IMG/VR virus record: IMGVR_UViG_3300029544_000210
Coordinates: 20,406 to 84,405 of that record
Reading direction: 5' to 3' (one strand)
Source: a virus
Taxonomy: Duplodnaviria > Heunggongvirae > Uroviricota > Caudoviricetes
Length of the DNA: 64,000 nucleotides
Shown: positions 9,673 to 31,507 of the stretch, piece by piece
Numbering within the stretch: position 1 is the first letter of the stretch
Layout of the letters: every line of letters begins with the position of its first letter
Program-made: the position numbers and the translations under genes
Notes under the pieces: model-generated
Databases searched by the model: none
What the model saw: only the letters and a program-made list of their open reading frames with translations
Told to the model about the DNA's origin: nothing

Positions 9673-10293
9673 TTACATATTGTCTATTTCTAACCACCTA
9701 ACAATTGGCTCAGATGTGCTACCTTTTTCCCACACGAACCATGCATGGCACATTGTAGTCGCCCACTTCTTTCCCGTTTTTGGATCTTTCTCTAATCCAC
9801 TATTCCAAGTTGCCATTCTATTCCTGAACACATATATGTACTTAGGTGGATATTTTTCAAATAATTCTTTTCTTTTTGCGCCCTCAAGAAATTGAATTTT
9901 AAGAAACATTGCCATCTGACCATTATCTGTTAATAAATCCATTCCTTTTTCTACAAATTCTTTTGCAAGTGAATATGGTGGATTGGTTATGATGCCTTCG
10001 TATTTTTTATCTGTTTCATATGTAAGAAAATTAGCAACAATTGTGTTAGGATATCCTCTATCGACTAAATCAAGTCCTGTAATTTCTCTTTTATTCTTAT
10101 AAAATTCATTTATTGCATTAGCAATATGACCACCACCTACACACGGTTCTAATATTGTCTGTGCAAAAAAATCATATTTTGAAAGCAGCATTTTTACTGC
10201 TTCAGGATTTGTCGCATAGTAGTCATTTTCTACTCTTTCATTTTCTGGATTACCACCAGCCAATTTAGCACCTGCTAATACTTTTTTCTCCAT
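9673..10293 (-). CDS. N6-adenine methyltransferase (NPPY motif, gamma-like motif order)
   Basis: EPCVGGGHI (motif I-like) followed by ITNPPYS (motif IV). Confidence 0.55.
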   Translation of the reverse strand: MEKKVLAGAKLAGGNPENERVENDYYATNPEAVKMLLSKYDFFAQTILEPCVGGGHIANAINEFYKNKREITGLDLVDRGYPNTIVANFLTYETDKKYEGIITNPPYSLAKEFVEKGMDLLTDNGQMAMFLKIQFLEGAKRKELFEKYPPKYIYVFRNRMATWNSGLEKDPKTGKKWATTMCHAWFVWEKGSTSEPIVRWLEIDNM

Positions 10294-10481
10294 TTTGTGT
10301 TACCAGAAAGCTCATATGATTTACAGTAGCTACACTTTACATCCTTTCTGATATTTATTCTCTTATTAATTGGGATTCCCATAACCGAATAGCTTAGATA
10401 TGATTAAAAATTCCCTATGAAAGATTGGTTTTAAGTGAAATCACTTCATCATTTCTTTCAGTTTTTTATTCTTATATTCTC

Positions 10482-11651
10482 CTATCCGTTGTGTTTTAAT
10501 AAATACTCCCTCGAAACATTTTTAAAACTTTTTTGCCCTGAAATATCTCTGTATACAAATCCCTCTCTCTTAACCTTTGGATTTAATTCACTATATCCAT
10601 CAGCTTCAAGTTTCATCTCTTCCATAGTCTTAGGTAACTCATAAGCCGTATCAATAATTGGCACACTTGTTAATCCATGGCTCTTACAGAAATCAGCCAT
10701 TTCTACAGTTCCCAGTCTTGTACCATCAATAATCAGATTGAATACAAATAACTTATTCTCCGTAAATTTATATGGATTTCCCTGAACCGAGCCAACTCCT
10801 TCACCTTGTAACACAACTCTGTTATAGTCATTCTCTGTTGCAAACTGCGTAAGAATCTTTTCAATGTCATATTTATCAGCCAATTCCCAATAAATATTTG
10901 ACTCGTGATAACAAGCCTGTTCTCTATCAGCCTGCCTTACATTTCTACTGCATACGATAAAATCAAATTTGTTCTTGCCCTTCTTCAATCTATCAACTGC
11001 AAATGTGCAGCTTGTACCATCGCATTTCTCAGTCTTAATCCACTTTTCTGTACTCTGAAGATAAAATGGTGCATTCTCAATTCTTGTCTCATCTGTTTTG
11101 ACAATCCAATCTGGAAACTTCTTTGGATTATCTTTCTTGCGACCAAACAATAGAAACATAATCTTACGACCAATGCTGTATCTCATAATCCTTCTTACAA
11201 TTGGGTTAGCGAATAACTTTGGTCTACGCTTTGCCATTGACTTATATTTAGCATTTGGATCAATCTTATTAGTCTTTCTTGCTGCATCCTCTTCTGAAGC
11301 ATATGTAATCTTCAAAGCTTCTGTAACATCATCACCAATATTTCTATCCTGTAATTCTGGGAAAAGTGATAATGGTAAGGCTAATCCCTGGCTAATTACT
11401 TTGAACTTGCCAAGTTTCATAGTCTTAACTTTGAATTTCTTATTTGCCAAAAATGCGAATCTCTCATCTGTTTCAGGACACTTGCTGTCAATTTCGATAT
11501 AAACAGCCATATCTCCTACATTAAACTCGCCTTTCTTAGCGATGCAAACCCATCCTAAAACTCCAATGAGTTCAATATTATCAGCTCCTTCAATCGGTCT
11601 GATCCACTCAATTTTTTCTACATGTGCTAATGCTCTCTCTTTGTTCTCCAA
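10482..11651 (-). CDS. ATP-dependent RNA ligase (Rnl-family nucleotidyltransferase)
   Basis: Covalent-nucleotidyltransferase motif I KxDG (TEKCDGTSC). Downstream EGFVYRD resembles ligase motif IV/V. Size (389 aa) fits Rnl-like enzymes. Confidence 0.6.
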   Translation of the reverse strand: MENKERALAHVEKIEWIRPIEGADNIELIGVLGWVCIAKKGEFNVGDMAVYIEIDSKCPETDERFAFLANKKFKVKTMKLGKFKVISQGLALPLSLFPELQDRNIGDDVTEALKITYASEEDAARKTNKIDPNAKYKSMAKRRPKLFANPIVRRIMRYSIGRKIMFLLFGRKKDNPKKFPDWIVKTDETRIENAPFYLQSTEKWIKTEKCDGTSCTFAVDRLKKGKNKFDFIVCSRNVRQADREQACYHESNIYWELADKYDIEKILTQFATENDYNRVVLQGEGVGSVQGNPYKFTENKLFVFNLIIDGTRLGTVEMADFCKSHGLTSVPIIDTAYELPKTMEEMKLEADGYSELNPKVKREGFVYRDISGQKSFKNVSREYLLKHNG

Positions 11652-11719
11652 GTTCCTCTTACCTTAGTAAGTAGTGCGCACTTTATCCTATAGGAACTTT
11701 TCTATTTTTCCTTTCTTAT

Positions 11720-12424
11720 TTAATCTTCTAATTTATTACCTTTAGCTTCATTACAAAGCTTACACATTGTTTGATAGTTACTAATATCATCAATACCACC
11801 TTTTGAACGTGGTAAAATATGATCTTTTGTCATTAAAATTTCATCACCATTATCATCAACTGCATACAGATTTAGATGATATGTTTTATCCTGCAAATGT
11901 CTTTCTTTTGCAAAATATTTGCCTTCAATTCCACAAAATACACACTTACAACCTTTTGTGAAAAATGTCTGGTATCTTTGGCTATTACCTTTTATTAAAT
12001 CTCCATCGAAATCAACCTTTGCATTTCTCTTATCTTTTTCAAATAAAACATTTTTCACTTTATTTCTAACTTCATCAATAGAATATACTTCCTTGCGAAT
12101 TAAGTCCTCATGCTTTGATTTTGATTTTTTTAGTTTTGGTTCACAAAACTGCTTATTCAATAAAGTATTGTAGACATCTTCGATGTTTAAAACATCAATC
12201 AAATCTTTTACCGTTCTGATGTTGTTAGGAATATAATCAGAAAGTAAATGTCTATTCCAAACAATCTTAAAAATTTCTGTATCCAAATTTGGTGATAATG
12301 GATTATTATTCTTGGGAAAACTCGTATTTAACAAATCTTCAATAGTTTCATATTTGTCTAATAACTCCTTATCATTAAAACGATAATGAAATTTAAGACC
12401 TTTAAAAAATTTCTTTTTGCTCAT
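11720..12424 (-). CDS. HNH endonuclease
   Basis: C-terminal CVFCG...DHILPRSKGG...NYQTMCKLCNEAKGN, an HNH/zinc-finger signature. Confidence 0.7.
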   Translation of the reverse strand: MSKKKFFKGLKFHYRFNDKELLDKYETIEDLLNTSFPKNNNPLSPNLDTEIFKIVWNRHLLSDYIPNNIRTVKDLIDVLNIEDVYNTLLNKQFCEPKLKKSKSKHEDLIRKEVYSIDEVRNKVKNVLFEKDKRNAKVDFDGDLIKGNSQRYQTFFTKGCKCVFCGIEGKYFAKERHLQDKTYHLNLYAVDDNGDEILMTKDHILPRSKGGIDDISNYQTMCKLCNEAKGNKLED

Positions 12425-13250
12425 AGTGACATCTCCTTTAAAATTTTATTGTCACTTATATATTCTCTCTTTTATTTGGAAATCGTGAGCAGAAATGCTC
12501 TAAGATAAAATCATTTGAAATGCTTCTTTCTTATTTCTCATATAAAGCTTTCTGAAATTGTTTTCTAAATTTCTTACAAGCTGATTCATTTTGACTATCT
12601 GTTAATACTCCATGTATATAACAATACTGAATTGAATATAATAACTTTTGTAATCTCTCAGCGTCTTTACTGAGAGTACACCCTTGTTTATTCACATACT
12701 TTTCCAAATTATCAAATAACGGATCAAAATTACTCATATCTACAACTTTACCCATATTCTTATTCCCCCATCTGATCTACAATACTTTGTAACTTGTCAA
12801 TATACATCTGTGCATATTTTTTATGTGATAACTGTTTAATATTAGCAGGTACAAAAGCTAACTTTGCTTCACCAAAAACATCATTATTTGAATAAACTTT
12901 CATAAACTGGCACATAGTTTCAGCATCAACCCGATCTAAATCTAGCTGAAAACAAATTACATCGCCCTTCTGTGGATGCAGTTTTCTAACCTTAATAAGT
13001 GTCTGTTTAAATAACTTCTTTTTCTGTCTCTTGTTCAATTTCTCACCTACTTTCACAACCGAATGAATCGTGGTTTTCCTACTTTATTCTTGCAGCACAG
13101 GGTTTGCATATATATACCTTTATTTTTTAAATCGTGTTTTAGATATAATATTTTTAATTTTACAGATATTACACTCTACCAAAACACATGATACTCTTTG
13201 TTTAAAATTATTTTTATAATATATTTTTCCTAAATCTTCAATTATATTAA

Positions 13251-13778
13251 TCATTCCATATATAACTCCTCAAATACAATTTGTTTAGGTAATAATTTAT
13301 AGCACCAATAAGCACTCATAAAAGTGATTTTATTTTGAATAACACCATTATTTAAAAATTTCATTCTCTTGTTAAAAGATAATATTTGTAATTCTTTATC
13401 TTTAAACAAATGATATGGAGCTGCATCATTCCACCAAGTATTGGGTGCAATAAGCGCAAATGGTTTGCCAAAACTTAATGCTCTTTCAAAGATTTTTCTT
13501 TTATTAGTAAATGGTGGATTAGACACAATACAATCCCAGTTCTCATCAGGTTCATATGTATAGAAGTCTTGTCCATTATCTATATGAGTAGCGATTACTT
13601 TGTGACCTGCTTCTCTAATTTGTTTAACAAATTCACTATTTTCCATGTCAAATGGACACCAAACCGTTGCTTCTTTTGGTATATATTTTACTATCGGTTT
13701 AACACCGTAATTTGGTGTCATACATTCGTCATTGTTTCCTTTGCTATATAATACTTCTTGACTATTAATCTTTGTCAT
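13251..13778 (-). CDS. phage-type DNA N6-adenine methyltransferase (small Dam-like, NPPF)
   Basis: ECMTP near the N-terminus and IVSNPPF. 175 aa. Confidence 0.55.
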   Translation of the reverse strand: MTKINSQEVLYSKGNNDECMTPNYGVKPIVKYIPKEATVWCPFDMENSEFVKQIREAGHKVIATHIDNGQDFYTYEPDENWDCIVSNPPFTNKRKIFERALSFGKPFALIAPNTWWNDAAPYHLFKDKELQILSFNKRMKFLNNGVIQNKITFMSAYWCYKLLPKQIVFEELYME

Positions 13779-13926
13779 TTTTCAAAAAGGTACAACGTTG
13801 TTTTATTCTTGCAAGAAACCTATACCTTTCTTAATATTTTTTGTAATTACATTTATATATTCTTTTAATTCTTGTTGTCTCCAACCTCTGAAGCCTTGAT
13901 TTTAGGGAATTTCAGAGATTGAGATT

Positions 13927-14757
13927 TTAATAATTTGTGATTAATACCTCACAATCGGCACTCTTGTCCTTTTTCTGATAATTGCAGTTGCTATAATCAT
14001 GCTTTAAATAATGAACTATGTATTTATCTTTCCATTTATCAAGTAATGGATTGTCATATTTGAGATTATTACTTAATGCAAACTTAACACCTTTATCATT
14101 CAACATATCAAGAGTCTCTAGTAATTTATTCTCCATTTCTTCTGTCCAGCCACCGTTTTCATTGTATGTAGCAACAGAATTGAAATATGGTGGATCTGCA
14201 TAAACAAAATCGCCTTCCGTAAAATCGGAAAAATCAAATCTCTCAAATGGAATATTTAAGAAACTACAGTCTATTTCATTTAGCCGCTTATGAAAATCTA
14301 TAAATTTTTGTCTAAGAGTGGGATTAAAACTTGACCTATCTTTACCAAAAGGCATATTGTATTCACCTTTGGAATTGAATCTGATTTGATTATTGAACGC
14401 ATAACATAAAAGCGTATAGAATTTAATTGGGTCTTTAATACCTGTGTTATATTCTTCTCTAAACAGTAAATATCCTTCTTTGTTTTCTTTAGTTAATCCA
14501 TACTTATTAATATATGAATCAATCTTATGTAATACTTCTTCAATATTTGAACCTTGTAAATATCTTAGAAAACCAACTACCTGTTCACATATATCATTGT
14601 AGATAATGTGATCAGCCTTTACATTAATACCAACATTAAAACCTCCACCAAATAAATCCACGAAAGTATTTATCTTATCTGGAAACATCGGTATAATGAT
14701 TGGTAGTAACTTATACTTGCCACCTACATAATTAAGTGGACTCTTTATATTACTCAA
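13927..14757 (-). CDS. Dam-family (D12 class) DNA N6-adenine methyltransferase
   Basis: NYVGGK, DLFGGGFNV (motif I), YADPPY (motif IV). Confidence 0.8.
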   Translation of the reverse strand: MSNIKSPLNYVGGKYKLLPIIIPMFPDKINTFVDLFGGGFNVGINVKADHIIYNDICEQVVGFLRYLQGSNIEEVLHKIDSYINKYGLTKENKEGYLLFREEYNTGIKDPIKFYTLLCYAFNNQIRFNSKGEYNMPFGKDRSSFNPTLRQKFIDFHKRLNEIDCSFLNIPFERFDFSDFTEGDFVYADPPYFNSVATYNENGGWTEEMENKLLETLDMLNDKGVKFALSNNLKYDNPLLDKWKDKYIVHYLKHDYSNCNYQKKDKSADCEVLITNY

Positions 14758-14930: not shown

Positions 14931-15437
14931 TTAATATGGATTGACTTTAATGATTTCTTTTCCAACCTTTTCAGCATACTTAACACAATTTGCAGTACCA
15001 CCTTTTGTGCCATCCCAAACCGCAATAACTTTATCTGCCAAATCAACCATATATTCATTTCTTTTCTGCATTAGCCAAGGCTTATATTCTTCATCAGATA
15101 CCAACTTCACTGTATCTGCTTTTGAAAGAATATCGTTATATTGGTCAATACTTTCCTTAATCCATTTACAAGAATGATTCTTACGAGGAATTGCACAATG
15201 TAATTTAATGTCATAACCTTCGTCTTTGAGTTCTAATACTGCCAATGCAAATACTGTATCAACTCCAAGAGCCATTCCTGTAATCGCTTCTGTACAATTA
15301 TTCTCTTTTAGAATTGATTTAAACTGTTTTTTTAAGTTCTGCCAACGTAGATCAGATAAGTTGTAACCATATAATTTACTTGGTCTGTGACCTGTTACAC
15401 ATATTTTCATATTTTGTCCTTTCACGGTTGGATTCAC
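14931..15437 (-). CDS. SLOG / YpsA-like (DUF1273-like) Rossmann-fold protein
   Basis: ICVTGHRP and ITGMALGVD motifs, plus Gly-rich GTKGG near the C-terminus. The SLOG superfamily is predicted to bind nucleotide-derived ligands. Confidence 0.45.
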   Translation of the reverse strand: MNPTVKGQNMKICVTGHRPSKLYGYNLSDLRWQNLKKQFKSILKENNCTEAITGMALGVDTVFALAVLELKDEGYDIKLHCAIPRKNHSCKWIKESIDQYNDILSKADTVKLVSDEEYKPWLMQKRNEYMVDLADKVIAVWDGTKGGTANCVKYAEKVGKEIIKVNPY

Positions 15438-15759
15438 TTCTCAACCTCAATACTTTTTAAGCTGCCAAGAATGTTCATTGATTGTAGATACAACTTTTTT
15501 GTTACAATTTTAATGGCTTTTTCTAGCACTTCATCGTATGTTATGTATCTCAAATCAATTTTGGTTCTATCATTATCTCTATATATCTTAGGAAGAAAGT
15601 ATAGATAAGCATAATCAACACCTACAAGCTGTGTAGTTAATTGAGCTACCAATTCTTCTCCAATATAGAAATCATATTCACCATATACCCATCTATTTTT
15701 TACTCTGTGCTTTCTTACTTCCATAATCCTTCCTTCCTAATGAAATATCGCATTCATTT

Positions 15760-16092
15760 TTATTTTAGTCTGTTCTTATATCGCTCAATACCATATCTTT
15801 CAAGCGAACTACTTGTCATAGTAGCCATTTCCACGTTTGTATTTAACAGAATTGACAACACAAGTGGAAGCTCATCGATCAGAATATTTTTATCTCTTTT
15901 CATTGCATCAATATCAGCAAATTCATATGCAGAATAAATCTTAACCTCTTTATCAGTAATTCTTTCTGCTAAATCACAAAGATACTGTTTCATACTCTCC
16001 GTTCCTACGATAATTGGATATCCCGTCTCTACTGCTTTCATAATAAGTCTTGTTGATTTACCGTATCCTCTTGGTACATTTAAAATTTCCAT
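15760..16092 (-). CDS. small P-loop NTPase (110 aa)
   Basis: Walker A GYGKST, Walker B-like ILIDELP. Confidence 0.4.
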   Translation of the reverse strand: MEILNVPRGYGKSTRLIMKAVETGYPIIVGTESMKQYLCDLAERITDKEVKIYSAYEFADIDAMKRDKNILIDELPLVLSILLNTNVEMATMTSSSLERYGIERYKNRLK

Positions 16093-16113
16093 GTGTATAT
16101 TCTCCTATCGTTT

Positions 16114-16857
16114 TTAGAAATTTGGATAGAATGAAGGCATAAGCTGAAGCTTGAATAAATTCTTCTCATGCATTGAATCAATCTTCGCTTTTACATCCTC
16201 ATCATTAATCTCTCCTGTTCTGATATACCTATCAAGAGTGTCATAAGTGAATCCAAGGTTGTCCTCGTCAGTCTTTCCACAAAGACCGTCAGTAGGTGTC
16301 TTATCTACTAACTCAGATGGAAGTCCTAATTCACGACCAATCGCCTTAACTTCCGAAACTGTGAGCTGCGATAGTGGACTGAAATCACCTGCTGCGTCTC
16401 CATATCTGGTAGCATATCCTACCCAATCCTCTGAAAGATTACATGTATTTGCAACACGACCATTGATTGTCTGAGATACTGCATAAAGTGTAGCCATTCT
16501 GATACGAGCAGGAAGGTTTGTTGTTGTTTGTATAGATAAATTTTCGTCTAATGATGTTTTAATTTCATATTCAGCAACATTAACAATTGTTCCAATTGGA
16601 ATGATCGTTCGAGGAATATCTAAAAAGTTGCATAGCATATGACTATATTCGATATCAGATTGTCTTCCCTGCGGCATAAGTACACCAAACACTCTATCTT
16701 TCCCAAGAGCTTCTACACACAGAGCAGCTACAACGCTTGAGTCCTTACCTCCTGAAATTCCAACTACTGCATTACAATCCTTACCATTCTTATCAAACCA
16801 ATCTCTGATCCACTGTACTACTTCGTTCTTTACTGTCTTTACATCAAAATTACTCAT
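16114..16857 (-). CDS. nadE: NH3-dependent NAD+ synthetase
   Basis: PP-loop SGGKDS. TRYGDAAGDFSP and TPTDGL...DEDNLGFTYDTLD line up with the E. coli NadE motifs TKYGDGGTDINP and APTADLEDD...LGVTYDNIDD. Confidence 0.85.
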   Translation of the reverse strand: MSNFDVKTVKNEVVQWIRDWFDKNGKDCNAVVGISGGKDSSVVAALCVEALGKDRVFGVLMPQGRQSDIEYSHMLCNFLDIPRTIIPIGTIVNVAEYEIKTSLDENLSIQTTTNLPARIRMATLYAVSQTINGRVANTCNLSEDWVGYATRYGDAAGDFSPLSQLTVSEVKAIGRELGLPSELVDKTPTDGLCGKTDEDNLGFTYDTLDRYIRTGEINDEDVKAKIDSMHEKNLFKLQLMPSFYPNF

Positions 16858-17296
16858 GTTTTATCTCTCCTTTTTCAATCTTCTCAATCAATGTAAGTAA
16901 TTCATTGTATACCTGAATTAAACCGCCTCTGTCATCAATATAAACATTTGCATATATTTTTCTACCTGCAAAAGCTACAGATGCGTCACAATTGATACCT
17001 CTATACTTGATATTGTTGTCCTTTAGATACTGCTCAATCATTCCGTATTTATCTTCACCATTCCCAGTAAAAATAATTATCTCTGAATAATTCTCCCATC
17101 TTTGTAAAAGATTAATGACATTCTCATATGTCCTACCCTTCTTATGGAAATCATAAATCGTATCATCGAAATCTACACAAAAGATAAGCCTGCCATATTT
17201 CTTAAATTCTTCCTCTAATCTATTGTAGGAATTATTGGCTTGAAGATAAAAATCCATATTACTTTCCTCCATACATTCTGTTCCTAATGTCCTCAA
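16850..17296 (-). CDS. HAD-superfamily phosphatase-like protein
   Basis: DxDxT motif CVDFDDTIYDF near the N-terminus. Confidence 0.5.
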   Translation of the reverse strand: MRTLGTECMEESNMDFYLQANNSYNRLEEEFKKYGRLIFCVDFDDTIYDFHKKGRTYENVINLLQRWENYSEIIIFTGNGEDKYGMIEQYLKDNNIKYRGINCDASVAFAGRKIYANVYIDDRGGLIQVYNELLTLIEKIEKGEIKHE

Positions 17297-18761
17297 ATGT
17301 ATCCTCTCTTACTAATTCTCCATTCTTGAATACAGTTGTAAGCAAACTATCTTCATTCATATCGAGTAACTGATCCTGACACTTCAGTTCTCCATCTTCT
17401 TCATATACTTTGCAACACCCCTTATGAGATTTCTTTAAATGGCTTGTATCAGTCTTCGGATCTTTGAAGATCATAAGCCTCTTACCATCAATAACTCCAT
17501 AAGTAGCCTTCATTGCAATTCCAAAAGTATCTCTTGTAACAACAATCATCTTTCCATTCTCGACAATAGCTGTAAAACAAAATGCACCTACACCATAAGC
17601 AATGTTATTAGCTGCAAATCCACGCCTTTCTAACTCTCTCCAAATAGTCTCTACATTAGAAAGAGTACATCCGTCACCATAGATAATACCAATATGAGGA
17701 TCTAACACCTTATAACCCTTACCGTTGATAGAACCACCAAAGATATCCCATAATCTTTCTACTGTCTTAACTGAAATCTCTACAATATCACCACTGTCAG
17801 GACGAACAAGCAACTTGCCATTGTGATTCATAATCTCTTCCTTACACTGTGGAAGAATATTGTTTACCATATTCCAATAATCATAGGTATCTGAAACCAT
17901 ACTAAATGAAGTATTTGGATATAATTCTGTAAGTAATCTCTTAACGAATGTAATCTCATCACCATCAATTGAGTAATTTGCTCCCATTACGGAATGCTCT
18001 GTTGATACTGCACCAATTCCAATACCACTATTCTTACAATCAGCATTGTAATATTTATCAATATATGTAATGGCAGGAATAGTTGAAGTCTTATTGAAAG
18101 ATAATAACCATGAAGCAGAACATCTTGTAGCTTCGTCCATACAAGACATACCTCTCATACCAAAATCGGCACAAGCCATATTGCCAGGTAAACCGTCTGT
18201 TGTTTTGTTATACCAATAATCTGCAATCTCACGATACATATGACCAATAGTTGCGTGACAGCAAGGCTTCCATAATTCAACCTGAAGGATACACTCAATC
18301 CACTGAACAAGCCATGCAAATTTGTCATCTGTATTGGTAATTTCAATACAAGGAACTCCCATTGGTACAAGTGTTCCCTCTGGTAAAGCTCTAATTTTAA
18401 GTGGCAGATAACCAAGTCTGTGAAGTTCTACAATCTTCTCTAAGTCGTAATTATCTCTGCCAATCTGCACATCCATTGAATCTGTATAAAGAGATAACAT
18501 CTCATTCTCTGATAATTCAAAGAAATTCTTCTGGAAATATCCCATTAGATATTCCTTAATAAAAGCCTGTAATCCGAAGAAAACCATATGATTCTGATTT
18601 TCCAACATTGATTTACGAGGCACCCAATATGAGACTAACTTAGTTAATCCCTTTGGGTACATACGATCATGACACTGCTTATAAGTATCACTAAGTAATA
18701 AAGCCATTGTGTTATCCATAATTTTAAACCTCCATAACTGTAATCTTTTCATGACTACCAT
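17259..18761 (-). CDS. nicotinamide phosphoribosyltransferase family (NAMPT; Namat-like in the NARP1 context)
   Basis: 500 aa. Matches the human NAMPT layout throughout: DTYK, ALPEGTLVP, DFGMRG, VRPDSGD, IIYGDG, and C-terminal LLTTVFKNGELVREDTFEDIRNRM. Confidence 0.85.
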   Translation of the reverse strand: MVVMKRLQLWRFKIMDNTMALLLSDTYKQCHDRMYPKGLTKLVSYWVPRKSMLENQNHMVFFGLQAFIKEYLMGYFQKNFFELSENEMLSLYTDSMDVQIGRDNYDLEKIVELHRLGYLPLKIRALPEGTLVPMGVPCIEITNTDDKFAWLVQWIECILQVELWKPCCHATIGHMYREIADYWYNKTTDGLPGNMACADFGMRGMSCMDEATRCSASWLLSFNKTSTIPAITYIDKYYNADCKNSGIGIGAVSTEHSVMGANYSIDGDEITFVKRLLTELYPNTSFSMVSDTYDYWNMVNNILPQCKEEIMNHNGKLLVRPDSGDIVEISVKTVERLWDIFGGSINGKGYKVLDPHIGIIYGDGCTLSNVETIWRELERRGFAANNIAYGVGAFCFTAIVENGKMIVVTRDTFGIAMKATYGVIDGKRLMIFKDPKTDTSHLKKSHKGCCKVYEEDGELKCQDQLLDMNEDSLLTTVFKNGELVREDTFEDIRNRMYGGK

Positions 18762-19560
18762 TAAACAAACTGTTTGTAGTAAATAATCTGTTCACTGTAT
18801 TATTCTCCAAAGACTTGATCAACGTTCCTTTTTCTTTATCAAGAATTGAATTCTCTGTATGTGTTGCATACGCATAAATCTCAGTTACACCATGTTTCTT
18901 TAATTCTTCTGCGCTATAATAAAGTGAACCGCCATATGCGATAATATCATCAATCATTAACACAGCTTTGTCCTTCAAATCAATACCATTTGTTATAATG
19001 TCTAATCCAAGGATTTTGCCAGTCTTCCAATCTCTTTTCTTTTCACCATAACAATATGGTAACTCAGGGAATAAATCTGAATATCTCTTAGCTGCACCTG
19101 CGTCTGGGAAATAAAGTACAAGATTTCTCATGCCAATCTTTGAAATAGCTTTATCAACATACTCTTTTGGATTTTCTTTTACACAATTATTGAGTAATGC
19201 AGTAGAAACATCGCTATGAGCATCTAAAACATAAACTGATGAAAATCCTAACCAATTGATAAAATCGCAAAAATACTTCAATGTGAATACTTCATCATCA
19301 TTTTTTACTCTATCCATTCGTGCATTAGGAATATATGGAAGATATAAATAATAATCCACATTAGTAAAAAATCTTTCAAGATGTTTCCTTACTAACATCA
19401 GATAAAACATCTCATCGTTACTCTCATAAATCCATTCAATCCAAATGCAAGGAGAGCCATCATAAGTGTCTTCCTCAATGTTGTTTGTATCAATATTTAC
19501 TCTTGGTGTTCCATCTGGGAACTTGTTGATTGCTACAATTTCACCATTAATTTTAATCAT
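18724..19560 (-). CDS. ribose-phosphate pyrophosphokinase homolog (Prs-like; candidate ADPR-PP synthetase Adps)
   Basis: PRPP-binding loop VLMIDDIIAYGGSL. Shorter than cellular Prs (278 aa). Overlaps the NAMPT-like gene by 38 nt. Confidence 0.7.
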   Translation of the reverse strand: MIKINGEIVAINKFPDGTPRVNIDTNNIEEDTYDGSPCIWIEWIYESNDEMFYLMLVRKHLERFFTNVDYYLYLPYIPNARMDRVKNDDEVFTLKYFCDFINWLGFSSVYVLDAHSDVSTALLNNCVKENPKEYVDKAISKIGMRNLVLYFPDAGAAKRYSDLFPELPYCYGEKKRDWKTGKILGLDIITNGIDLKDKAVLMIDDIIAYGGSLYYSAEELKKHGVTEIYAYATHTENSILDKEKGTLIKSLENNTVNRLFTTNSLFNGSHEKITVMEV

Positions 19561-19563
19561 ATT

Positions 19564-20076
19564 CTACTCTCCAATCACGTTAATCTGACACATCTTCATT
19601 GTCTCTAATGCAGCCTTATGCGTCTCAGGTGTAACACCTGCACAGCAACTTGCATCCACTGTAATATCAATATTAGGATAATTTGCTCTAATCATAAGTG
19701 CATTTGACACTACACAAATGTCTGTACAAAGACCACAAACTTCTACTTCTGTAAAATCAAAATCATCCCAATGTGTCCATCCGAAAGTCGGCTTATCAAT
19801 AACTACGTCATTCTCAATATCAAAATCTAACTTATCTGAAATCTGCCATCCGATTGTATTTTTTACACAATGGACAACTGGGAGATGCTTTCCTTCATAT
19901 GTTTCTAAATAATTATTTGGGTGTGTATCTCTTGTAAAAATTACACTATCACCATTTTCTCTGTACTCCTTGATTTTCTTTGCCACATTAAGTACAATAC
20001 TCTGTGCTTCATTTGTGCCAAGTGAGCCATCAATAAAGTCATTCTGCATATCAATTACAATTAGTGTTTTACTCAT
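19564..20076 (-). CDS. isochorismatase-family hydrolase, PncA-like nicotinamidase
   Basis: VIDMQNDF (catalytic Asp) and CGLCTDICV (catalytic Cys). Confidence 0.7.
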   Translation of the reverse strand: MSKTLIVIDMQNDFIDGSLGTNEAQSIVLNVAKKIKEYRENGDSVIFTRDTHPNNYLETYEGKHLPVVHCVKNTIGWQISDKLDFDIENDVVIDKPTFGWTHWDDFDFTEVEVCGLCTDICVVSNALMIRANYPNIDITVDASCCAGVTPETHKAALETMKMCQINVIGE

Positions 20077-20480
20077 AATGTTTTTCCTTTCTATACTATA
20101 TCTTGTTATTATTATTTTATCTAACCAGTATATGTAGTGTTAAACTTACCATGAAATGTCGGTTTCAATTCTCGTCATCTTGAAATGCTTTTATTCTATT
20201 TTCAAGATAATCTATCTCATCTTTCCAATGCTCAACTAACATATCTTCAATCTGTTGTTTTGCATCTTCTATGCTATCAGCAATAATTGTGTCATATTCT
20301 ACATTTAATTCTTCTGAAACATAAATATAAACATTCTCATCCGTTTCATCTTGAACAAATCCAGCTACTACATTCTCATTTTCTTCTTCATAGAACTGAC
20401 TGAAATGTAGTTTATAACATTCTTTGCCAAATTCGTTTTTCTCTCCTACTTCCCAATATTTATTCATAAACACCTCACAA

Positions 20481-22068: not shown

Positions 22069-22815
22069 CTAAATCTCAAACAACTTCTCTACAGCTTTCT
22101 CACCTGTAACTCTATCTGACTTCTGTAACACTTTGCGTTCTTTCTGCCAGATACATTTAAAATCATCAGGCATATTATATTCACTTATCAACACTATATT
22201 ATTTTCTGAAAGTTTACGAAGAAAATCGTAGAATTCGCTATAGTCGATTGACTGTTTAGAATACTGTTTTGTATTTTTATAAGGTGGATCGAAGTAAAAG
22301 AGGCAGTTCTTATAATCTGCAAAGTCTTTGTAATCACAACATCTAAATTCAATATCATTTAAATCAGGAATTTGTGTTCTAAAATTCTTCAGTCTTTCAT
22401 TATAAATACTTCTACCACCCTTAGAATCTCTGCCATATCCACCATCAAAATATCTGCCACCATAAGATGCACAATATCCAATAAGTGCTATATACTCTTT
22501 TGAATACTTATGTGTTCCAAGTTTTCTATCTTCTCTCACATCGGCATAATGTTCAAATGTACATACATCTGGTGCAATAGATAAATCATTATCAGACTGA
22601 GCATATTTCAATAAAGCAATTAGTTCTTCATTAATGTCAGCCCCTATCTTCTTATCACATTTAATCTTATCAATTAAATTCGCTCCACCAACCATAGGTT
22701 CTATGTAAGTTTTAATATTATTGTCATCAATATACTTCTGAATAATTGGCACTAAAAATTTTGCCAATCTATTTTTACTTCCTTGATATACCATTCCATT
22801 ACCAGAAAGTGACAT
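22069..22815 (-). CDS. Dam-family DNA N6-adenine methyltransferase
   Basis: YQGSKNRL, EPMVGGANL (motif I), YFDPPY (motif IV). Paralog of 28735..29460. Confidence 0.75.
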   Translation of the reverse strand: MSLSGNGMVYQGSKNRLAKFLVPIIQKYIDDNNIKTYIEPMVGGANLIDKIKCDKKIGADINEELIALLKYAQSDNDLSIAPDVCTFEHYADVREDRKLGTHKYSKEYIALIGYCASYGGRYFDGGYGRDSKGGRSIYNERLKNFRTQIPDLNDIEFRCCDYKDFADYKNCLFYFDPPYKNTKQYSKQSIDYSEFYDFLRKLSENNIVLISEYNMPDDFKCIWQKERKVLQKSDRVTGEKAVEKLFEI

Positions 22816-22860
22816 GTCCTTAGTAGCTACCTAACTTTTTCCTTTCTGTTTTAATATTTT

Positions 22861-23685
22861 CTACTTCACATATAAACTTTCATACACAATACTATCATTT
22901 GATTTACCAATAGTACGCTTAAAGCTGCTATTACCACTAAGTAAATATTCGTGTCGTGTATATACATCTTCTGGAACATTCCATGTATTGTCTATATCCC
23001 CACTCTTACCATCGAATGATAAAGCATACTTGCAAGGTAAACTCCTCAAATAATTCCAAAACTTCTCATAATCAATTGTTCCATAATACATACCCTTTGT
23101 ATTGGCATAAGGTGGATCAAGATACAAGAAGTCGTTATCTGTTGGGTTAATATCTTCATAAGAACAACTGATAAACTCTACATTATTTTTCTTCAGCATA
23201 TGACTCCACTCAAAAATAATCTTTTCAAAAGTTTCAGGAATAATACCATTTCTTGTTACATGAAAAGAATTATTAAATTCACCATCACGATTATATCTTG
23301 GCATACCATTAGTAGTAGTTCTCATAATGAACATAAAATCTAATGGATTATGTTCTTTATTGTATCGTTCTCTTACACTTGCAAAATATTCTTTTTTACG
23401 TTGTTTGTCATCATCAACATTTAACTCATTCCAGAGTTTCTTATAATAAAAATAAACTTCTAATGGATTATTGATAATCTCTTTCCATAAATCAATTAAC
23501 CCGCTATTCAAATCACTACATACATAATGATTAACTTTGATGTCGCTATCTAATAATCTCCTTAATACAGACGCTCCACCACAAAACGGTTCATAATATG
23601 TATCAATTTCTTTTGGAAAGAATGTCAGTATCTTTTCTGCCTGACTTCTTTTACTTCCACTCCATTTAATTACTGGTTCGTACAT
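22861..23685 (-). CDS. Dam-family DNA N6-adenine methyltransferase
   Basis: IKWSGSKRS, EPFCGGASV, LYLDPPY. Confidence 0.8.
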   Translation of the reverse strand: MYEPVIKWSGSKRSQAEKILTFFPKEIDTYYEPFCGGASVLRRLLDSDIKVNHYVCSDLNSGLIDLWKEIINNPLEVYFYYKKLWNELNVDDDKQRKKEYFASVRERYNKEHNPLDFMFIMRTTTNGMPRYNRDGEFNNSFHVTRNGIIPETFEKIIFEWSHMLKKNNVEFISCSYEDINPTDNDFLYLDPPYANTKGMYYGTIDYEKFWNYLRSLPCKYALSFDGKSGDIDNTWNVPEDVYTRHEYLLSGNSSFKRTIGKSNDSIVYESLYVK

Positions 23686-24186
23686 TTAATCTACTCAGAG
23701 CGAAATTTCTTTAAGGCTGCCACTCACTCCTTTCGTATTTTGTTCACATATATATTTTCTATTTATTCAACAAATCCAAGAATAATTTTTGCAATACACT
23801 TTGCATTATGAGAATCCATATCTTGAATAATCGCTTTTGCAAGATTGATATTATGATATTCTATAATTTCAATCTCTTCGTCTGTTGGATTATTACGATC
23901 TTCAATCGCTGAGTTAAACTTCTGACAAGTTGATATAATATTTTCAAGCATATTTTTCACCTCGCTAACTTCAAATGAAAGATTTCTTTCAATGTATTAT
24001 TTGAATTCTATCTTATTTCTTTTTAATACCTTAACTGCCTTGTCATAATCAGTTTCAGCTACTTTGATGTTTTTCATCTTGGTAGGCTTTGGTTTTATCC
24101 AATAGCGACATTCTGTAATATCTTCGTCATACCACATCAAACCACCTTCACAATATTTATGATACTGGCAGTCATTGTTACCACAT

Positions 24187-25041
24187 CTACTCATTTATAT
24201 ATTCTCTCACTCTCTTATTTCCAACCTCAAAAATTTCCTTATCTTTCTCAAAACATATGTAATTCCTATTTGTATTCATAGCTGCAATCGCAGTTGTACA
24301 ACTTCCTGCACACGAATCAAGAACCAAATCACCTGGATTTGTGTATGTCTTGATAAAATACTCACACGCTTCAACAGGCTTTTGGCACTGATGTAAGCTA
24401 CTTTTCTGAGTATCCCATTTAAACTGCAAAACATCTCTTGGATATCTTTGTGTACTACCACCACCTGAAATACCAATCTTTGTAGCACCATAACAGTTAC
24501 CATCTGTTGTATGTTTTGTATAAGAATGAACAGGCGTATGTCCTTCTGTCATTTGTGGATTGTAAGTAGGGAGTTTCTTATAGAAAATCAAGACATTTTC
24601 GTGTGCCTTCATAGGCATTTTCTTAGCGTTTAGATGACCAGTTGCTTTGGTCTTTTCGATAATCCATTCATAGCGATATAGCTTTTCATTACTACAAGCG
24701 AGCCTCTTATCAAATGGTGACTGCGCCCATAATGCAATACAACCATTATCTTTGATAATTCGATTGTAGTGAGTCCATAAACCATCTTTTTTGTTCTCAT
24801 AAAACCAATCTCTTGTATATTCAAGACTGCTATCTATTACTTGAGCTAACTCGAACAAATCTGTTTCATAAAAATATTGACCTGATAATTCCACATAATC
24901 ATTTAACGGCATTTCACATTCCCAAGAATTATTAGTCGTATTATAAGGCAGATCCGTGAAGATGAAATCGACTGACTTATCATCAATCTTTTTCATACCT
25001 TCAAGACAGTCTTCGTTGTATATTTTGTTAATCTCTAACAT
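24187..25041 (-). CDS. beta-class N6/N4 DNA methyltransferase (pfam N6_N4_Mtase-like)
   Basis: Motif IV-like FTDLPYN precedes motif I VLDSCAGSCTT, which is the beta-class circular permutation. Confidence 0.65.
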   Translation of the reverse strand: MLEINKIYNEDCLEGMKKIDDKSVDFIFTDLPYNTTNNSWECEMPLNDYVELSGQYFYETDLFELAQVIDSSLEYTRDWFYENKKDGLWTHYNRIIKDNGCIALWAQSPFDKRLACSNEKLYRYEWIIEKTKATGHLNAKKMPMKAHENVLIFYKKLPTYNPQMTEGHTPVHSYTKHTTDGNCYGATKIGISGGGSTQRYPRDVLQFKWDTQKSSLHQCQKPVEACEYFIKTYTNPGDLVLDSCAGSCTTAIAAMNTNRNYICFEKDKEIFEVGNKRVREYINE

Positions 25042-30951: not shown

Positions 30952-31404
30952 CTAAAATGCAGTACCACTCTCACCCTGATTAATTTCTTTACACTTCTGA
31001 TCACACTCTTCCAATGTCTTAAACAAAGAAGTCTCTCCTCTATTTCTTACATTTACATATTCTCCAACAGAATTAACTTTATATTTAATTGTGGTTACAT
31101 CATTCCAAATACTAGCCACAATTCTTCTAATTTTAACTTTATGAGGTACAACCACTGTCTGTTTACATACAATCTTCCCTGTTGTATTACACTGTTTACA
31201 TGGAATTTCATATCCGTTGTAAAGAATCTTCTTTGTTCCTTTACATATTGGACAAATAATTTCTACATTTTCTCTTGCGTATGTATAACATTCTTCCCCA
31301 ATTTCAAACTTATTGTCTATTGTTTTCATTTTAAAATACCTCCTAATATAATAAATAATGTGCCATACGAGGTTTGAACTCGTAACATCTTGATTAAAAG
31401 TCAA
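30952..31404 (-). CDS. zinc-ribbon hypothetical protein
   Basis: CPICKG...CKQCNTTGKIVCKQ. Confidence 0.4.
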   Translation of the reverse strand: MTFNQDVTSSNLVWHIIYYIRRYFKMKTIDNKFEIGEECYTYARENVEIICPICKGTKKILYNGYEIPCKQCNTTGKIVCKQTVVVPHKVKIRRIVASIWNDVTTIKYKVNSVGEYVNVRNRGETSLFKTLEECDQKCKEINQGESGTAF

Positions 31405-31431
31405 GTGCTCTACCTATTGAGATAATGGCAC
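31359..31431 (-). tRNA. tRNA-Lys (anticodon UUU)
   Basis: Minus-strand cloverleaf. Acceptor GTGCCAT/ATGGCAC, anticodon stem CTTGA/TCAAG with loop CTTTTAA, T-arm ACGAG-TTCAAAC-CTCGT. The D/anticodon region is close to E. coli tRNA-Lys. No encoded CCA. Confidence 0.8.
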
Positions 31432-31435
31432 ACAG

Positions 31436-31507
31436 CTAGGATGGTGGGATTCGAACCACGAATGTCAGAATCAAAATCTGATGTGTTGACCACTTCACCA
31501 CATCCCA
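31436..31507 (-). tRNA. tRNA-Gln (anticodon UUG), with an atypical T-arm
   Basis: Minus strand. Acceptor TGGGATG/CATCCTA (one G-U pair), D-arm GTGA...CAC, anticodon stem TCAGA/TCTGA with loop TTTTGAT, T-loop TTCGAAT. The T-stem pairs imperfectly (only 4 bp, or an 8-nt loop). Confidence 0.55.

Follow-up and report, generated by a model that had tools for sequence, protein, structure and literature searches.

A NARP1-related gut-phage operon with a remodelled Namat pocket and a candidate deamidated route to NAD+

Depletion of NAD+ is among the commonest strategies that bacteria deploy against phages, and three phage pathways that restore the nucleotide have been reported so far, namely NARP1, NARP2 and NARP3. 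NAD+ reconstitution pathway 1 (NARP1) consists of two enzymes, Adps and Namat (Osterman et al., bioRxiv 10.1101/2024.02.11.579819; Namat structure in PMC12774641), and NARP1-AP is NARP1 accompanied by Adpp, a Macro-domain phosphatase of ADP-ribose 1''-phosphate (ADPR-1''-P) (bioRxiv 10.64898/2026.01.28.702374). Here we examine a related operon on the minus strand of a 64,000-nucleotide stretch of a Caudoviricetes genome (positions 20,406 to 84,405 of the IMG/VR record IMGVR_UViG_3300029544_000210; hereafter the window, to whose full length all positions refer), in which Adps-like and Namat-like genes lie among genes for a PncA-like nicotinamidase, a HAD phosphatase and an NH3-dependent NAD+ synthetase, NadE. 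The gene content of this operon, the residues substituted in the nicotinamide pocket of its Namat and the strict co-occurrence of that change with PncA and NadE across related loci are observed directly, and we consider it fairly probable that the operon is a deamidated variant of NARP1 that restores NAD+ with nicotinic acid and nicotinic acid adenine dinucleotide (NaAD) as intermediates.

The likeness to NARP1 resides in the adjoining, same-strand Adps and Namat homologues, which are of the same lineages, in the intact catalytic core of Namat, and in a location within the early, counter-defence part of a large phage genome. The window departs from NARP1 in the replacement of the residues equivalent to Asp215, Ala242, Gly213 and His187 of Namat, in an SCH motif that is interrupted in the window's clade, in the obligatory linkage of this Namat class to PncA and NadE, and in a predicted transferase product that is NaAD rather than NAD+. 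With NARP1-AP it shares the inclusion of a phosphatase gene in the operon, and most sister loci have a Poa1p-like Macro gene in the slot of the window's HAD gene; the window phosphatase, however, is an unrelated capless HAD whose substrate is predicted, and the preprint text on NARP1-AP makes no mention of a HAD partner (bioRxiv 10.64898/2026.01.28.702374). A third point of comparison is the Preiss-Handler pathway, a complete cluster for which is present in the Sinorhizobium jumbo phage Phosso (L339 4774-10415) and comprises a PncA-like hydrolase, a nicotinamide mononucleotide adenylyltransferase (NMNAT), a Nudix protein, a PncB-type nicotinate phosphoribosyltransferase (NAPRT) and NadE. The first (PncA) and last (NadE) steps and the deamidated intermediates are the same, but the window has no detected PncB-type NAPRT or adenylyltransferase for nicotinic acid mononucleotide (NaMN), and Adps with the Namat variant would take nicotinic acid to NaAD starting from ADP-ribose (ADPR). 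We found no paper in which NARP1 is linked in this way to NadE, nicotinamidase or NaAD; the genome paper on the recoded gut phage phAss-1, a carrier of the module, does not discuss it, and a 2022 survey of viral NAD+ systems mentions neither NadE nor PncA.

The five-gene core

Seven genes had been named in the original prediction at 14931-20076, and all seven are present on the minus strand, together with an eighth, a 96-amino-acid open reading frame (ORF) at 15434-15724, that had been missed. The eight co-directional ORFs encode, in order of reading, the nicotinamidase, the Adps-like kinase, the Namat-like transferase, the capless HAD phosphatase, NadE, a mini P-loop protein, the 96-residue orphan and a YpsA-type SLOG protein, and are tightly packed, with intergenic spacings of at most 35 nt. 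The first five (16114-20076) constitute the core of the module; with corrected starts for Namat and HAD, PncA and Adps are separated by 3 nt, Adps and Namat by 4 nt and Namat and HAD by 1 nt, while HAD and NadE overlap by 8 nt. Since this core recurs in hundreds of phage contigs, its clustering is beyond chance.

The kinase (18724..19560, minus strand; 278 residues; PHROG 619, E 3e-65), assigned as an ADP-ribose pyrophosphokinase, aligns over its full length with the characterised Adps of SPbetaL1 (35% identity, E 1e-43) and is 33% identical to the Adps of FADO, as against a score of just 52 bits with B. subtilis Prs, and it lies below every NCBIfam cut-off for Prs (91 bits versus 113). Its Lys174 aligns with the catalytic Lys162. 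On these sequence grounds we place it with the phage Adps proteins, apart from cellular Prs. Among the 31 positions that are conserved in at least 80% of canonical Adps proteins, none differs across the whole class of Adps linked to Namats with alanine or serine for Asp215 (described below), so the ADPR side of the pathway is probably unchanged.

The Namat-like transferase (17259..18719, minus strand, within an ORF extending to 18761; 486 residues; NAPRTase and NAMPT_N domains; PHROG 448, E 5e-163) probably starts at M15 (18719) instead of the annotated ORF start, judging by the lengths of its homologues. It scores 395 bits with the top solved chains, 9w5w/9w5x, which carry the motifs of SPbetaL1 Namat, versus 194 bits with human NAMPT, and is thus placed by sequence nearer to Namat than to Nampt. 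The earlier proposal that the Prs-like and NAMPT-like genes form a NARP1-type pair is borne out by profile searches and pairwise scores, which favour Adps over Prs and Namat over NAMPT, and the pair is, as judged by descent, of the NARP1 lineage and not housekeeping Prs and Nampt.

The best solved relative of the PncA-like protein (19564..20076, minus strand; 170 residues; Isochorismatase PF00857, E 6e-29) is the pyrazinamidase/nicotinamidase of P. horikoshii (1ILW, E 7e-16), with which all six of its triad and metal residues align: the triad of Asp9, the Lys of 'IDKP' and the Cys of 'GLCTDICV', and the metal ligands Asp50, His52 and His69, are intact. NadE (16114..16857, minus strand; 247 residues; NAD_synthase PF02540, E 2e-53) scores 187.5 bits with TIGR00552 against a cut-off of 63.65, and has a single domain, without a glutaminase. 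That PncA and NadE without PncB and NadD make an odd combination had been pointed out, and indeed no homologue of PncB or NMNAT (queried with the Phosso proteins), nor of Macro, was detected in the 64-kb window by tblastn, with one query per family and hence limited sensitivity. No match to the cluster was obtained by Megablast against the phage collection.

The Namat pocket, its genomic partners and the phosphatase slot

In the crystal structure of Namat, the nicotinamide pocket is formed by Phe189, Arg192, Asp215, Ala242, Arg306, Asp13' and Tyr15', and in the SPbetaL1 enzyme Asp215 hydrogen-bonds the nicotinamide, its change to alanine lowering NAD+ output 8.1-fold (PMC12774641). Four positions in and around this pocket are altered in the window protein, where SPbetaL1 Asp215 is replaced by Ser226, Ala242 by Ser253, Gly213 by Lys224, and His187 by Ala198. 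The residue aligned with Asp215, and with Asp219 of human NAMPT, is thus serine in the window and alanine in the clades of locus L002 and of phAss-1. For human NAMPT, D219S (Khan et al. 2006) is tabulated as a switch of substrate affinity and D219A as a loss of activity (PMC4919578, Table 2). The aspartate-to-serine change is the same at the equivalent position in the window, but the human protein is an engineered single mutant that depends on phosphoribosyl pyrophosphate (PRPP), whereas here four pocket changes have arisen naturally in a lineage that probably depends on ADP-ribose pyrophosphate (ADPR-PP). That the window protein might be a dead enzyme was considered and rejected, since the TRD motif is conserved and so are the catalytic residues His256, Arg203, Arg320, Asp25 and Tyr27.

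A first large protein search with the Namat-like sequence returned only relatives of 72-94% identity, and diversity was instead obtained from locus scans and a library of representatives. To the window and four reference loci we added IMG/VR contigs retrieved by four separate Namat queries, and the resulting 256 loci were scored for the residue aligned with Asp215 and, by tblastn, for neighbouring genes within 5 kb. Where that residue was alanine or serine (174 loci), NadE was found nearby in 171 and a PncA-like gene in 172, the few loci lacking one or the other being contigs that end near the locus; where it was aspartate or glutamate (82 loci), neither gene was found even once, and all 82 had canonical SCH motifs. 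A scan begun from NadE gave the same pattern of residue and neighbours, as did 19 contigs from bacterial genomes, mostly Lachnospiraceae, Roseburia and Ruminococcus, and both PncA and NadE were present in 69 of 72 further Ala/Ser loci.

The other three positions change together with Asp215. Scored on the best 150 representatives, clustered at 50% identity, among which position 215 is Ala, Ser or Val in 51 and Asp or Glu in 96, position 242 (SPbetaL1 numbering) was never Ala in the former class (50/50 scored) and Ala in 85/88 of the latter. Position 213 was other than Gly in 49/51, mostly Lys or Asn, as compared with 2/96, and position 187 was other than His in all 47 scored as compared with 2/85. 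We therefore regard the original suggestion of something fuller than minimal NARP1 as well founded, PncA and NadE being tied to a remodelled class of Namat; the further suggestion that PncA and NadE exploit host enzymes is disfavoured by the systematic remodelling of the Namat nicotinamide site in strict linkage with both.

Gene order in the module is flexible across its carriers. The closest phage in GenBank is MT835544, a human faecal phage, whose transferase shares 53% identity with that of the window and has Ala at the Asp215 position; its genes run Adps, Namat, Macro, NadE, isochorismatase, and the first two are separated by two small ORFs. In phAss-1, which also has Ala at this position, the order is that of the window, with a nicotinamidase, a Prs-like protein, a Nampt-like protein, a HAD protein of 139 residues and NadE. 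The likely hosts are Lachnospiraceae, because the module occurs in the 19 bacterial-genome contigs mentioned above. It also lies within large isolate scaffolds of Lachnospiraceae bacterium A4 (L345, 791 kb) and Ruminococcus sp. AM36-2AA (L349, 499 kb), which suggests integrated or co-assembled prophage relatives and candidate hosts.

Several variants were encountered alongside these loci. In the abundant P0111 lineage (646 residues, 2406 member sequences) an Ala/Ser-type Namat carries a C-terminal fusion to a HAD-like domain of another kind, with the motif MDVDGVL and no Pfam match, and at one such locus (L432 6090-8030) the Macro gene is still present, together with an upstream ADP-ribosylglycohydrolase. 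Seven loci (L219, L222, L227, L235, L238, L246 and L258) encode otherwise canonical Namats that have Glu for Asp215 (GSETxPAI) and KSRDS in place of NTRDT; NadE and PncA are not near this Glu-type subgroup, and a HAD gene is found at several of its loci. One IMG/VR contig (L264) has NadE and PncA-like genes 3.7 kb apart and no Namat or Adps homologue by tblastn in its 16.7 kb. In the uncultured megaphage LR756501 (L256 7726-11472), 2.7 kb separates NadE from a HAD gene of PHROG 1238; the 19 kb inspected has neither a Namat nor an Adps homologue, and the phage provides no independent test of the link.

The HAD phosphatase (16850..17257, minus strand, within an ORF extending to 17296; 135 residues; PHROG 1238, E 4e-22) probably starts at M14 (17257) rather than at the annotated ORF start, again judging by homologue lengths. 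It has no Pfam match and a search of PDB sequences gave none, but motifs I-IV (DxD, T/S, K, DD) are all present and invariant in the alignment, and its predicted model (confident, pLDDT 86) has a Rossmannoid HAD fold nearest to those of capless HAD phosphatases whose substrates are sugar bisphosphates and nucleic-acid 3'-phosphates. In the slot directly after Namat, the 174 Ala/Ser loci have HAD in 31 cases, a Macro gene of the Poa1p-like ADPR-1''-P phosphatase type in 123, neither in 20 and never both, and HAD and Macro replace each other even between phages with Namats 94-98% identical to that of the window. As HAD alternates with an ADPR-1''-P phosphatase in one slot, a role analogous to that of Adpp, on ADPR-1''-P or a related ADPR phosphate, is indirectly supported by comparison of loci. 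The HADs of these operons need not share one job, since the lineage with a different HAD-like domain fused to Namat keeps its Macro gene.

The HAD family is not confined to the Ala/Ser class, occurring in 13 of the 82 canonical (Asp/Glu) loci. PHROG 1238 members lie inside canonical NARP1 operons of Bastille-like Bacillus phages and of crAss-like phages, as in Bacillus phage Belinda (gp66, L257 4001-4393) and the crAss-like cr126_1 (L258 4971-5396), where the label is 'phosphoheptose isomerase', and look like a mis-annotated NARP1 accessory gene that has gone unreported. Homologues are found in 91 phage records, 'hydrolase' and 'polynucleotide kinase' being other annotations of the family, and some (P0153, 251 residues) have an N-terminal extension of 116 residues without a Pfam match.

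The predicted route and its alternatives

Every enzymatic step of the proposed route is predicted from the genes and their residues, above all the joining of nicotinic acid to ADPR-PP to form NaAD. The route would begin with cleavage of NAD+ by a host NADase into ADPR and nicotinamide. Where the host makes ADPR-1''-P in place of ADPR, the HAD protein would strip the ribose phosphate, a task that would fall to the Macro/Adpp enzyme in sister phages. Adps would then convert ADPR and ATP to ADPR-PP, PncA would hydrolyse nicotinamide to nicotinic acid and NH3, and the Namat variant, with its amide subsite rebuilt, would combine nicotinic acid with ADPR-PP to give NaAD, from which the NH3-dependent NadE would make NAD+ using ATP and NH3. 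Adps and the variant Namat would thereby stand in for PncB and NadD of the Preiss-Handler pathway.

This deamidated route is the simplest reading that uses every conserved gene. PncA and NadE are taken as integral steps because the nicotinamide site of Namat is remodelled in strict linkage with both and the site of PncA is intact; a nicotinamide-dependent Namat would be an unlikely partner here, since the nicotinamidase of the same operon would work against it. For the other half of the molecule, ADPR is taken as a substrate because a gene for a Macro ADPR-1''-P phosphatase within the operon at 123/174 loci makes sense in no other way, and as the backbone in place of ribose-5-phosphate because of that gene, the unchanged Adps and the adenine clamp kept in most of the family.

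Several observations weigh against the deamidated route. The clamp of the window's own clade is degraded: its SCH adenine-clamp motif, GAFCFT-AIVENGKMI-VVTRD, has Phe at position 3 followed by a nine-residue insertion and a non-aromatic residue at position 7, unlike the NARP1 motif, and the SCL stacking residue, third in its loop and either Arg, Lys or Tyr in NARP1, is Met52 in the window versus Arg40 in SPbetaL1. In the Ala/Ser-type family as a whole, Arg is found at the SCL position in 40/46, Phe or Tyr at SCH position 3 in 48/49, and an aromatic residue directly before TRD in 30/47; a scan of the viral collection aimed at Ala/Ser-type representatives that lack the insertion turned up no close relatives. 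With two of its three adenine-stacking positions replaced (Arg40 by Met52, and Val-Val before TRD) and the SCH motif split, the window clade appears less secure in its use of ADPR-PP as donor than the family does. The SPbetaL1 D215A enzyme, moreover, keeps reduced, not abolished, activity with nicotinamide (PMC12774641). Specificity of NadE for NaAD is assumed, because this NadE is about as close to Francisella 3FIU, an enzyme that prefers NaMN, as to other short NadEs, and similarity to solved structures does not tell enzymes that prefer NaAD from those that prefer NaMN. The deamidated route would spend an extra ATP, and its selective advantage is unexplained. Finally, the Ala/Ser sequences form one clan (48/60 bootstraps, in a neighbour-joining tree of 71 representatives), so the correlation between pocket and neighbours may stem from one ancient change instead of repeated convergence, and the evidence would then amount to long-term retention through about 30-50% sequence divergence, changes of gene order and swaps of cassettes.

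Among the alternatives, the best placed, though in our judgement improbable, is salvage by a PRPP-based Preiss-Handler route, in which the Prs-like protein would make PRPP, the Namat-like protein would act as a nicotinate phosphoribosyltransferase yielding NaMN, host NadD would convert this to NaAD, and phage NadE would complete the synthesis. The loss of Asp215 and the link with PncA and NadE would fit it equally well, the degraded clamp of the window clade (Met52, the SCH insertion and Val-Val before TRD) would suit it, and in vitro acceptance of PRPP by Namat has been reported (PMC12774641). Yet the Prs-like protein lies below every Prs cut-off and shows no class-wide change at the 31 canonical Adps positions, the clamp residues are retained in most of the Ala/Ser family, and a Poa1p-type ADPR-1''-P phosphatase gene belongs to the operon at most of its loci. 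Phosso, a phage that does follow the classical route, has a PncB-type enzyme and an adenylyltransferase for it.

Rather less probable is that an ordinary NARP1, joining nicotinamide to ADPR-PP to give NAD+ directly, stands beside PncA and NadE that independently boost host Preiss-Handler flux in parallel. The Adps and Namat homologues do adjoin each other as in NARP1, and the residual activity of SPbetaL1 D215A would allow some use of nicotinamide, but such an arrangement leaves unaccounted for the joint switch of four pocket positions confined to loci with PncA and NadE, has a nicotinamidase in the same operon consuming the substrate of Namat, and sits poorly with the finding of NadE or PncA at 0/82 canonical loci. 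The idea that the PncA-like and HAD proteins destroy ADPR-derived immune signals, and do not act on NAD+ precursors, is very improbable. In its favour, phages do place signal-degrading enzymes such as RyDEP in NARP1 operons (bioRxiv 10.64898/2026.05.28.727677) and the HAD substrate is predicted by analogy; against it, PncA has a complete nicotinamidase triad and metal site and tracks the Namat pocket change and NadE rather than any signalling context, and NadE would be left without a role. The corresponding clause of the original prediction is disfavoured, although action of the HAD on a phosphorylated ADPR species has indirect support and already forms part of the deamidated route.

A wider proposal, to which we give an even chance, is that a large family of gut-phage Namat paralogues, to which roughly one third of the 150 nearest representative clusters belong, catalyses a reaction new to the literature in which nicotinic acid and ADPR-PP yield NaAD; that PncA, Adps and NadE complete with it a self-contained fourth NAD+ reconstitution pathway; and that the HAD of PHROG 1238 is a non-homologous analogue of Adpp that also serves the canonical NARP1 operons of Bacillus and crAss-like phages. 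If this were true, widespread phages of human-gut Lachnospiraceae would use a fourth route to NAD+ with a new enzyme activity, and there would be an explanation for the otherwise puzzling association of PncA with NadE in phage genomes. The four-residue signature would then tell nicotinamide-type from nicotinic-acid-type Namats, which present annotation tools are predicted to lump with NARP1, and a second, unrelated phosphatase family may counter defences that produce ADPR-1''-P, such as aRES.

Neighbouring genes and genomic surroundings

The three remaining genes of the interval follow NadE on the same strand. The first, 21 nt beyond NadE, encodes a mini P-loop/RecA-like protein (15760..16092, minus strand; 110 residues; PHROG 1828), for which the earlier P-loop label is reasonable given its Walker A and Walker B motifs and RecA-like predicted model. 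After a further 35 nt comes the orphan 96-residue ORF (15434..15724, minus strand), with no Pfam, PHROG or NCBIfam match, which overlaps by 4 nt the gene of the YpsA-type SLOG protein (14931..15437, minus strand; 168 residues from a GTG; PF06908, E 1e-22). The latter matches B. subtilis YpsA (2NX2, E 1e-8) and likely starts at M10, at 15410.

These genes were considered as members of the module and rejected, being absent from nearly all related loci. Across the 256 loci, the 110-residue protein occurs in 5, the 96-residue ORF in 1 and the SLOG gene, in varying positions, in 9, and none of the three occurs in the 19 bacterial-genome loci. The P-loop and SLOG genes, which had been counted as parts of the operon, are thus mere neighbours, in this phage only, of the conserved module. 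Signals derived from ADPR are the predicted targets of YpsA-like SLOG domains in viruses (PMC9503650), and a loose functional link of SLOG to the NAD+ module is possible.

Upstream of PncA, a promoter-like site, TTAACA-18-TAAAAT (20114..20143, minus strand; 10/12 match), lies in the 88-bp gap before the gene, and no terminator-like site was found between the cluster genes; as the region holds fewer promoter-like sites than shuffled sequence, the scan is not statistically meaningful and the site is a candidate only.

The NAD+ module is flanked on both sides (9673-14757 and 22069-25041) by at least five orphan DNA methyltransferases, three of class D12, one N6_N4 and one weakly Eco57I-like, along with one unassigned ORF with an NPPF motif, and an RNA ligase (10482-11651) and an HNH nuclease (11720-12424) lie near it. 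On account of these methyltransferases, the ligase and the nuclease, its surroundings, in the early region of a large phage, look like a counter-defence island. Elsewhere in the window there are two adjoining minus-strand tRNA genes, Lys-TTT and Gln-TTG (31358-31507), and every long ORF lies on the minus strand, with a strongly negative GC skew throughout.

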